Position numbers and translations under genes: made by a program
Notes under the pieces: generated by a model
Database searches by the model: none
What the model was told of the DNA's origin: nothing
What the model saw: only the letters and a program-made list of their open reading frames with translations
Shown here: one piece after another, positions 62,670 through 64,000 of the stretch
How positions within the stretch are numbered: position 1 is the first letter of the stretch
Layout of the letters: the number at the start of each line of letters is the position of its first letter
From: Escherichia coli O157:H7
Lineage (GTDB): Bacteria > Pseudomonadota > Gammaproteobacteria > Enterobacterales > Enterobacteriaceae
DNA length: 64,000 nucleotides
Assembly (NCBI RefSeq): GCF_013167455.1
Contig: NZ_CP038328.1
Strand: one strand, 5' to 3'

Positions 62670-63483
62670 ATTACCGTTAATGGCTTTTACGCTGTTGTTA
62701 CAGGCATCGGTCGGTATGACGTTGTGGCTGGCGTTTCTTCATCGTCATATTTTAATCACCTCCAGCGCCCGCCCGGTTATGCGGCCGCCATTACTGTTGG
62801 CTTTTTTGGCAGGTGCCGTAGGGTTACTGATTTCTACCTTACACCTGGGTTATCCACTTAATGCGATGCATGCGCTGAGCCACTTTTCCAGTTCATGGCT
62901 GAGTCGGGAAATTATCTTTGGTGCGCTGTATCTGGCGCTATTGGGTTTATCCACATTACTGGTCATGTTACGCAAAGGCGGCTGGCAACTCCTGCTTATG
63001 CTAGCGGCAGTGGTCGGGATTGTTGATGTTTTCTGCATGGCGCAAGTTTACATCCATACGTCGATTATCACCTGGCAGCATTACAACACGCTGATTATGT
63101 TCTTAGGTACAGTGGGAATTCTCGGTTCAGCGCTGGTAGCAGTGTTTCGTATTAGCGGAATTTTGCCGCAGATTGATGCCCTGCGTAATGGATGCGTGTT
63201 GGTGATCGCTCTCCTGGTTCTGCTGCGTTTGTTGGTTCAGCCGTTGTGGATAGGGGATTTAACGGCAAATGCGATGCAGATAGCCACATTGCCACATGCG
63301 CCATTAGCGATGCTGGGACAGTTAAAACCCATACTGACACTAAGCTGGGGAATTTCCGTCATTGGGATGATGTTCTTTGCTGTCGGTGGTTGTAAAAAGA
63401 ATATCCCGGCGGCGTTATTCGGTAGCGTAATGCTAGTGGGGAGTGAAGTTATGCTGCGTTTTGTCTTTTTTAGTATCGGCTAA
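62662..63483 (+). CDS. Membrane anchor subunit (DmsC-like)
   Basis: 273 aa, hydrophobic multi-pass; AAAGGAGG Shine-Dalgarno; start overlaps the DmsB-like stop by 8 nt. Confidence 0.8.
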   Translation: MHELPLMAFTLLLQASVGMTLWLAFLHRHILITSSARPVMRPPLLLAFLAGAVGLLISTLHLGYPLNAMHALSHFSSSWLSREIIFGALYLALLGLSTLLVMLRKGGWQLLLMLAAVVGIVDVFCMAQVYIHTSIITWQHYNTLIMFLGTVGILGSALVAVFRISGILPQIDALRNGCVLVIALLVLLRLLVQPLWIGDLTANAMQIATLPHAPLAMLGQLKPILTLSWGISVIGMMFFAVGGCKKNIPAALFGSVMLVGSEVMLRFVFFSIG

Positions 63484-64000
63484 TGTTAAGTCATAACATA
63501 ACGATTGGCGCGGAATGCGCGCGCCAACGCTTTCGTTTTGCAACATGTCATGCCTGTGTCGAGGCTTGCCCGGCACAGGCGCTAACGCTGACAGAAGAGG
63601 GCATAGCGGTCGACGCGGAACAATGTATTGATTGTGCGGTTTGCCAGTTTATTTGTCCGCAAGAGGCTATTCGTGGCGTTAATTCCCCTTTACGTTATTT
63701 TTGCAATCACACCCTGGTCGCACCTTTCACCACTATTGCGCCGACGCTGGAAGAACTTTTGCTATGGCATAAAGAGCAGGGGATCACAGCGATCGCGATT
63801 GATCTGAGTCAGGCGAAGGCATGGGAGCGCGCATTATTGCTGTTAAACGAATGCTTACGGCAATATGGCGAGGAAGGCTGGTCTGTGGTATCTCCACATA
63901 CCAGTGAGGTGAATGTTTCCCGGCGTCGTTTGTTCCATGTGCAGCGTGCGGATGTTCAGATGACACAAATACAACCAGGATTACGTCGGTTACATTATTT
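63483..64000 (+). CDS. Ferredoxin-like protein with a C-terminal domain of unknown function (3' end lies outside the window)
   Basis: ATG overlaps the DmsC-like stop (TAATG); open frame to the window end; motifs C-x9-C-x2-C-x3-CP and CIDCAVCQFICP; not listed in the ORF track because no stop is reached. Confidence 0.6.
   Translation, partial: MLSHNITIGAECARQRFRFATCHACVEACPAQALTLTEEGIAVDAEQCIDCAVCQFICPQEAIRGVNSPLRYFCNHTLVAPFTTIAPTLEELLLWHKEQGITAIAIDLSQAKAWERALLLLNECLRQYGEEGWSVVSPHTSEVNVSRRRLFHVQRADVQMTQIQPGLRRLHY

Follow-up and report, generated by a model that had tools for sequence, protein, structure and literature searches.

The gene discussed here is the fourth of a dmsABC-like operon in Escherichia coli O157:H7, and runs past the end of a 64,000-nucleotide stretch (the window) of contig NZ_CP038328.1, assembly GCF_013167455.1. 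We use X for this gene, its 284-residue protein and the family to which the protein belongs, A and B for the DmsA- and DmsB-type genes, and TorD for the PF02613 chaperone. Residue numbers are those of the O157 X protein and base positions those of the window. X belongs to a coherent and so far uncharacterised family, whose domain architecture sets it apart as a new form of NapF-type accessory ferredoxin. Its role is best described (estimated probability about 0.5) as that of a cytoplasmic, NapF-like maturation or accessory factor that would act on A, or on the A-B pair, before export, and we consider this more likely than a role as a respiratory electron carrier.

A word-indexed search for relatives of X gave almost no matches, and the family was revealed by an exhaustive search. 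This brought up 20 representatives with E values under 1e-30; in full length, about 60 members were found, with 280-310 residues and 23-46% identity. A search for loci using the single X protein found only two close Escherichia orthologues, together with unrelated ferredoxins; one match from Rhodobacteraceae was checked, and is a different and larger protein. The family is found in Enterobacterales (Enterobacter, Leclercia, Citrobacter, Cronobacter, Siccibacter, Atlantibacter, Rahnella, Erwinia, Superficieibacter, Proteus and Symbiopectobacterium), in other Gammaproteobacteria (Vibrio, Photobacterium and Paraferrimonas), in Betaproteobacteria (Uliginosibacterium) and in Bacillota (Bacillus and Brevibacillus). 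No Salmonella protein appeared among the matches of the family searches. All the named members that were found carry generic names and none has a family-specific one; the O157:H7 protein, WP_000948584.1, is called only '4Fe-4S dicluster domain-containing protein'. X is under purifying selection: two further Escherichia lineages have intact orthologues, and the ratio of nonsynonymous to synonymous substitution rates (dN/dS) among the Escherichia orthologues is 0.13-0.25. Short frameshifted or fragment products occur in a few E. coli assemblies, and indicate occasional pseudogenisation or sequencing errors.

The domain order of X, from the N-terminus, is a dicluster ferredoxin, an α/β middle domain, a flexible linker, a second dicluster ferredoxin and a four-cysteine zinc-ribbon. 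In an alignment of 53 family members (23-71% identity), 16 cysteines are invariant, namely C12/22/25/29, C48/51/54/58, C189/192/195/199 and C218/221/224/228, and we infer from these a content of four [4Fe-4S] clusters. The C-terminal motif C254-x2-C257...C271-x2-C274, which is zinc-ribbon- or rubredoxin-like, has two invariant cysteines and two that are at least 90% conserved. An earlier reading of the window, made from the sequence alone (the sequence-only reading), had noted an atypical C-x9-C-x2-C-x3-CP motif near the start of X. This motif is real: because C12, C22, C25 and C29 are invariant, the C-x9-C spacing must be a conserved trait of the family and not an accident. The same reading counted one classical and one atypical motif, which is correct for the part of the gene inside the window, while the whole protein has four cluster motifs plus the zinc ribbon; the second 2x[4Fe-4S] domain (C189...C228) and the C-terminal CxxC...CxxC module are encoded past the window end. 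Searches of Pfam confirm the presence of bacterial-type 2x[4Fe-4S] ferredoxin domains of the Fer4 clan, with matches at residues 21-64 and 183-230 to Fer4 (47.6 bits, gathering threshold (GA) 21.1), Fer4_7 (46.5 bits, GA 27) and Fer4_21 (37.7 bits, GA 35).

The structure of X was predicted with AlphaFold2. A model from the single sequence was unusable, with a predicted local distance difference test score (pLDDT) of 42.6, and the model used here is based on the family alignment. It is a single body with pLDDT 92.3 and a predicted template modelling score (pTM) of 0.88, in which the N-terminal ferredoxin fold is followed by a small α/β domain, a low-confidence segment (residues 141-160), a second ferredoxin fold and a β-rich C-terminal knuckle. 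The 113 residues that follow motif 2 inside the window have no Pfam match, and residues 66-180 (about 110 residues) match no Pfam family, PDB sequence or solved fold. The sequence-only reading, which described at least 90 residues that it could not assign, was therefore right about the segment but not about its place, since what it took for a C-terminal domain is a middle domain. The idea that this domain is a fused TorD found no backing, as PF02613 gave no match at E <= 10 in the whole of X or in 27 middle-domain sequences, and searches gave no support to its being DUF362. The O157 middle domain has two extra cysteines, C74 (63702-63704) and C124 (63852-63854), neither of which the family conserves; the two sister Escherichia orthologues have arginine at both positions.

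The known protein that X most resembles is NapF. E. coli NapF has 164 residues (its gene in K-12 is at L024 7004-7498), starts with VKIDASRRGILTG and contains four cysteine motifs, the third of which is C-x7-C-x2-C-x3-C. In an alignment of 20 NapF sequences, the twin-arginine (RR) pair and all 16 cysteines are invariant. Profiles of the two ferredoxin modules of X were compared with four comparators: NapF, DmsB, NapG and NapH, the last two being single sequences. The N-terminal module (X 3-64) matches the C-terminal half of NapF (NapF 93-157) with an E value of 1.5e-18 over 60 columns, which include the displaced cysteine, compared to 1.9e-10 (39 columns) for the N-terminal half of NapF, 5e-13 (39 columns) for DmsB, 7e-7 (30 columns) for NapG and 3e-6 (46 columns) for NapH. 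The second module (X 138-240) matches the N-terminal half of NapF (X 143-231 with NapF 3-82) with an E value of 7e-15 over 72 columns that begin at the RR motifs of both proteins, compared to 2.6e-12 (46 columns) for DmsB, 5e-11 (52 columns) for NapH and 9e-8 (47 columns) for NapG. NapF is thus the best of the four for both modules, in a permuted order: the module that resembles the C-terminal part of NapF comes first in X, and the RR motif with the module that resembles the N-terminal part comes second. This pattern is consistent with a NapF that has been circularly permuted, has received a middle domain and has gained a zinc ribbon.

The two proteins are also alike in other respects. Each has four tetracysteine motifs, in one of which the first cysteine is displaced (16 invariant cysteines in each, with the motifs aligned by hhalign); both have a twin-arginine-translocation (Tat)-like RR motif 30-40 residues before a classical dicluster module; and both have an N-terminus that, by eye, does not have the look of a recognisable signal peptide, NapF being reported as cytoplasmic. 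Both are encoded in the operon of a Tat-exported enzyme with molybdenum-bis(pyranopterin guanine dinucleotide), beside the gene for its chaperone, so that the napF-napD adjacency is mirrored. There are also differences. NapF proteins have about 160-180 residues in collinear order with SRRxFLRG at the N-terminus, whereas X has 284 residues in permuted order with an internal RR motif (146-151) and two extra domains, namely the conserved α/β middle domain (about 70-110 residues) and the C-terminal four-cysteine zinc ribbon. X is not in a nap operon and its partners are DmsA/DmsB-type rather than NapA; E. coli has its nap operon, with its own napF, elsewhere. BLASTP finds likeness to NapF only at the cysteine motifs, and the same is true for NapG (TIGR00397). 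The sequence-only reading had named a NapF/NapG-type ferredoxin as a family that might explain the protein fully. No such match was found, and the likeness to NapF is confined to the RR linker and the pair of ferredoxin modules. We consider that X probably works like NapF and is likely to be a distant relative of it, but is not a member of the NapF family.

X does not belong to the other families that it might be expected to join. It scores 26.5 bits on the DMSO_dmsB model (TIGR02951), for which the cut-off is 214, and has no Fer4_11 match. It contains no Nitrate_red_del (PF02613) domain, and has neither sequence nor fold likeness to the TorD/DmsD/NarJ maturation proteins, which are all-helical and without cofactor, although, like them, it would assist enzymes of this class from the cytoplasm, and they are frequent neighbours in the operons. 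The best matches in the PDB are electron-transfer polyferredoxins and ferredoxin subunits, namely the archaeal polyferredoxins MvhB and FwdF and RnfB-type modules. These matches cover at most 94 residues and only the ferredoxin modules; the proteins concerned lack the arrangement of middle domain, RR linker and zinc ribbon found in X, and are wires in cytoplasmic complexes with unrelated gene contexts.

The RR motif of X (Table 1) is conserved in the family. At the aligned site, 46 of the 53 members have RR and three more have KR, usually in the form S/T-R-R-x-F/L-F/L, and in the profile alignment it falls on the RR that is invariant at the N-terminus of NapF. Although it looks like the Tat consensus, its internal position, and the charged residues that come after it in place of a hydrophobic stretch, mean that it cannot serve as a signal peptide. 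The N-terminus of X itself, MLSHNITIG, has by eye neither an RR leader nor a hydrophobic stretch. One suggestion is that X is an adaptor for Tat proofreading, in which the internal S-R-R-x-F/L would mimic a twin-arginine signal, bind TorD/DmsD or TatBC, and gate export until the cofactors are loaded. In addition to its conservation, no internal segment of the model other than the RR site is flexible, the site matches the invariant SRRxFLRG of NapF in the alignment, and it is the only part of the middle segment of X that aligns with the arginine-rich N-terminus of NapG. One family member has a weak match to Pfam TAT_signal, and TorD and tatA genes are frequent neighbours. Nonetheless we regard this suggestion as improbable: there is no hydrophobic h-region after the motif, the motif is kept where the partner enzyme has no Tat signal, and the RR motif of NapF itself has no assigned function. 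A bolder proposal, and one that we hold to be just as doubtful, is that the X family may represent an unrecognised class of redox-enzyme maturation factors, in which delivery of iron-sulfur (Fe-S) clusters or reductive proofreading would be coupled to Tat targeting through the RR signal mimic, with the middle domain and zinc ribbon gripping the apo form of A. If this were true, NapF would be a minimal and permuted version of the same device.

The genomic neighbourhood of X was surveyed in 13 distinct loci, including the O157 island. X occurs with DmsA- and DmsB-type genes in 12 of these. The order is A-B-DmsC-X in Leclercia and in another contig; A-B-DmsC-X-TorD in one contig and on a Vibrio alginolyticus plasmid; TorD-A-B-DmsC-X in Vibrio porteresiae and on a Citrobacter freundii plasmid; A-B-NrfD-TorD-X-TatA in a metagenome contig whose assignment to Bacillota is a guess from its Bacillus/Brevibacillus-like sequence; X-radical SAM-TorD-A-B-DmsC in Symbiopectobacterium; A-B-X-TorD, with no anchor gene, in Paraferrimonas; and X-A-B in Brevibacillus. 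A short contig has only dmsC followed by X, and in Proteus X is an orphan. A chaperone gene of the TorD/DmsD family is in the same cluster in seven loci, and directly adjoins X in four; tatA adjoins X in one, the Bacillota-like contig. The anchor beside X varies, being DmsC-type, NrfD-type or not adjacent at all, and the constant partners of X are therefore A and B rather than the anchor. A Tat signal is present on the A subunit in the four loci in which its N-terminus was read, and there is a weak Pfam TAT_signal match in one more.

Some of these loci have features of their own. In Paraferrimonas sedimenticola (L010 3948-8486), A carries the Tat signal SRRQFMK, and the electron donor of the anchorless operon is not obvious. 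In Brevibacillus ginsengisoli (L025 7001-10613), X lies directly before a 691-residue molybdopterin subunit, and a second A-B pair, bearing a Tat signal, is found just downstream. In Symbiopectobacterium (L008 7001-14047, and L009), where A has 862 residues, a 440-residue radical S-adenosylmethionine (SAM) protein (Radical_SAM plus Fer4_12) is encoded between X and the TorD-like gene, and may be an additional maturase for that subclass of reductase. The Proteus orphan lies between a divergent gene for a crp/fnr-family regulator and a zinc alcohol dehydrogenase gene, and is preceded by a hydrophobic open reading frame of 50 codons.

Two roles suggest themselves for a four-cluster protein encoded in such operons, as the sequence-only reading recognised when it proposed an electron-transfer or maturation component. 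In the first, X would be a true electron-transfer subunit, a four-cluster wire feeding electrons to the reductase, which it would do either by drawing on a donor in the cytoplasm or as a fourth subunit that leaves the cell interior on the Tat signal of DmsA, in the same way as DmsB. The four complete [4Fe-4S] motifs in a compact and confidently predicted fold are what would be expected of a wire, and the PDB matches noted above are to electron-transfer proteins; moreover, the Paraferrimonas X takes the place of the anchor in its operon, the Brevibacillus X precedes an A-B pair whose A lacks a Tat signal, and the E. coli X is translationally coupled to dmsC. However, A is Tat-exported in most loci, while X has no N-terminus resembling a signal peptide, and hitch-hiking of a second Tat passenger is hypothetical. 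DmsC-type anchors are not known to contain a cofactor that carries electrons across the membrane, and the chain from quinol through DmsC and DmsB to DmsA is already complete. In addition, X groups with chaperone genes and has no fixed position among the structural genes. We consider this role unlikely, though it is the least unlikely of the alternatives discussed here.

The evidence leans instead towards the second role, in maturation, because X has no signal-peptide-like N-terminus, its partners are Tat-exported, it lies close to TorD-family genes and it resembles NapF. We infer that X, which would carry four [4Fe-4S] clusters and a zinc ribbon, is dedicated to DmsA/DmsB-type molybdoenzymes and is a distant, permuted and enlarged relative or analogue of NapF. 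Having no recognisable signal-peptide-like N-terminus, it would remain in the cytoplasm and meet the freshly synthesised catalytic subunit, alone or paired with B, prior to Tat export. Its labile clusters could help to load the Fe-S centres of the enzyme, or to poise them reductively, alongside a chaperone of the TorD/DmsD type, and the middle domain, flexible RR linker and zinc ribbon may be docking elements. NapF offers a precedent: it is described as a cytoplasmic four-cluster protein, which binds NapA and is needed for assembly of the NapA Fe-S centre in Rhodobacter, with weak phenotypes elsewhere (PMC10609526).

Several observations weigh against a NapF-like role in maturation. The A subunit beside X in Brevibacillus starts at its Fe-S motif and has no Tat signal, so that the role of X is not strictly tied to export and the family is not confined to exported enzymes. 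The Proteus X has no molybdoenzyme genes nearby (L026 5569-9035), and the O157 four-gene island does not itself encode a chaperone. The signal specific to NapF is modest, given that the two ferredoxin modules of X match each other with an E value of 4e-20 and ferredoxin modules are generally alike, and that the NapG and NapH controls were single sequences only. The 25 best NCBIfam families of X, of which the lowest scores 29.6 bits, do not include the NapF model TIGR00402 (cut-off 102.2 bits over about 149 positions; 248 bits for E. coli NapF), and X falls below the cut-off of every one of these 25. Finally, there is debate on what NapF itself does, and E. coli lacking it shows almost no phenotype (PMC10609526).

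There is a parallel in Haemophilus influenzae, whose dmsABCDE operon has a fifth gene described as a NapF homologue and chaperone (PMC8340005). By this description, dmsE is like X in being an Fe-S accessory gene that follows dmsABC together with a dmsD chaperone gene, as in the A-B-C-X-TorD operons. Shewanella DmsH, from dmsEFABGH, is required for full reduction of dimethyl sulfoxide (DMSO) and iodate and has no known function. It was considered as a characterised homologue of X and rejected on size, since a 468 bp amplicon and a 428 bp deletion imply about 145 residues, compared to 280-310 for the X family.

Two questions in the biogenesis of molybdoenzymes concern the loading, prior to Tat export, of the Fe-S centre beside the molybdenum cofactor, and the actual function of NapF-type proteins (PMC10609526). 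The X family is an independent and better conserved example, with extra domains, and is tied to DmsA-type reductases of many gut and marine bacteria, with which it travels on islands and plasmids. In Salmonella, the STM2530-2527 operon, reported from the same pbpC-ndk position, also has a fourth gene, whose function was not described, and DMSO-dependent growth was not regained when the dmsA homologue STM2530 was the only gene provided in trans (bioRxiv 10.1101/2022.11.29.517730). If an accessory gene is required, heterologous tests with the dmsA homologue alone may miss activity. The practical consequence of finding X is modest until a phenotype is shown.

In the window, X is preceded by a complete set of reductase genes, as judged from profile matches: a Tat-bearing A, a DmsB-type B and a DmsC-type anchor (Table 1). 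The A subunit scores far under the cut-off of each of the exception models for DmsA, YnfE and YnfF, and is classed as a member of the DmsA/YnfE subfamily that is none of these three. The sequence-only reading held that X is coupled to the anchor through TAATG, and this is borne out: the X ATG at 63483-63485 begins on the last base of the dmsC-like stop codon, TAA (cTAATG). It also asked for the remainder of the gene. All 172 codons in the window are open and the frame runs past the window end at 64000; in identical E. coli O157:H7 genomes the complete coding sequence has 855 nucleotides and 284 codons for amino acids, uninterrupted by frameshifts or early stops, and about 140 bp separate its end from ndk. 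In these 140 bp no terminator-like site was detected, and terminator-like matches inside the operon are at chance level.

Upstream, the AT-rich 163 bp that separate pbpC from the dmsA-like gene contain a site resembling an FNR box, TTGATTGTTATCAG, which may serve the four-gene operon as an anaerobic promoter element; six matches with one mismatch occur in the window as a whole, compared to a chance expectation of 2.2. This site bears on a further idea, that X is a sensor of redox state or oxygen, or a protective or repair factor, whose labile clusters would permit maturation or export only under anoxia, or whose zinc ribbon would mediate a regulatory interaction. The orphan copy in Proteus adjoins a crp/fnr-family gene, AraC- or PucR-type regulators are found near X in several loci, and the C-terminal zinc ribbon with the flexible linker motif could serve such an interaction. 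On the other hand, no DNA-binding domain was detected in X in Pfam and NCBIfam searches, and the tight, mostly overlapping coupling to structural and chaperone genes is typical of assembly factors. Of the explanations considered we hold this to be the least likely, and nothing but biochemistry would separate it from a NapF-like role.

Table 1. The four-gene operon and the parts of X that lie in the window.
Feature	Position	Strand	Evidence or remark
FNR-box-like site TTGATTGTTATCAG	59593..59606	+	1 mismatch to TTGAT-N4-ATCAA; 56 bp 5' of dmsA-like ATG; consensus match only
dmsA-like catalytic subunit, 793 residues, Tat signal SRRSFLQ	59662..62043	+	TIGR02166, 1122 bits (cut-off 778)
dmsB-like four-cluster electron-transfer subunit, 209 residues	62040..62669	+	TIGR02951, 266 bits (cut-off 214)
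dmsC-like membrane anchor, 273 residues	62662..63483	+	PF04976 DmsC, E 1.2e-23
X, first 172 of 284 codons	63483..64000	+	full gene would end at about 64337 in window numbering
Cluster motif 1, displaced first Cys, C12-x9-C22-x2-C25-x3-C29-P30	63516..63572	+	family-invariant; aligns with NapF C-x7-C-x2-C-x3-C
Cluster motif 2, classical, C48-x2-C51-x2-C54-x3-C58-P59	63624..63659	+	family alignment, Pfam
Middle α/β domain, residues about 66-137, predicted β-β-α-β-α-β	63678..63893	+	conserved P-x3-E-L-L, G-I, W, N-x2-L
Tat-like motif S146-R-R-R-L-F151	63918..63935	+	only low-confidence (flexible) internal model segment; about 38 residues before cluster motif 3

The reductase operon of E. coli O157:H7 is horizontally acquired. 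E. coli O157:H7 chromosomes match the window with 100% identity, and the segment is found in 380 of 5,426 complete E. coli genomes. Compared to K-12, the four genes form an insertion of about 4.85 kb, flanked by the pbpC stop on one side and the ndk promoter on the other (from 59499 through the window end at 64000 to about 64345; L001 11900-16750). The inserted island consists of exactly four genes, and X is an integral part of the mobile module, because the right junction is about 10 nucleotides past its stop codon. No flanking repeats or mobility genes were seen in the alignment of the island junctions. Related modules are carried on plasmids of Citrobacter, Rahnella and Vibrio. On the 5' side of the island, window positions 52224-59498 hold yfhM (an α2-macroglobulin of 1653 residues) and pbpC, arranged as in K-12, and are ordinary core genome.

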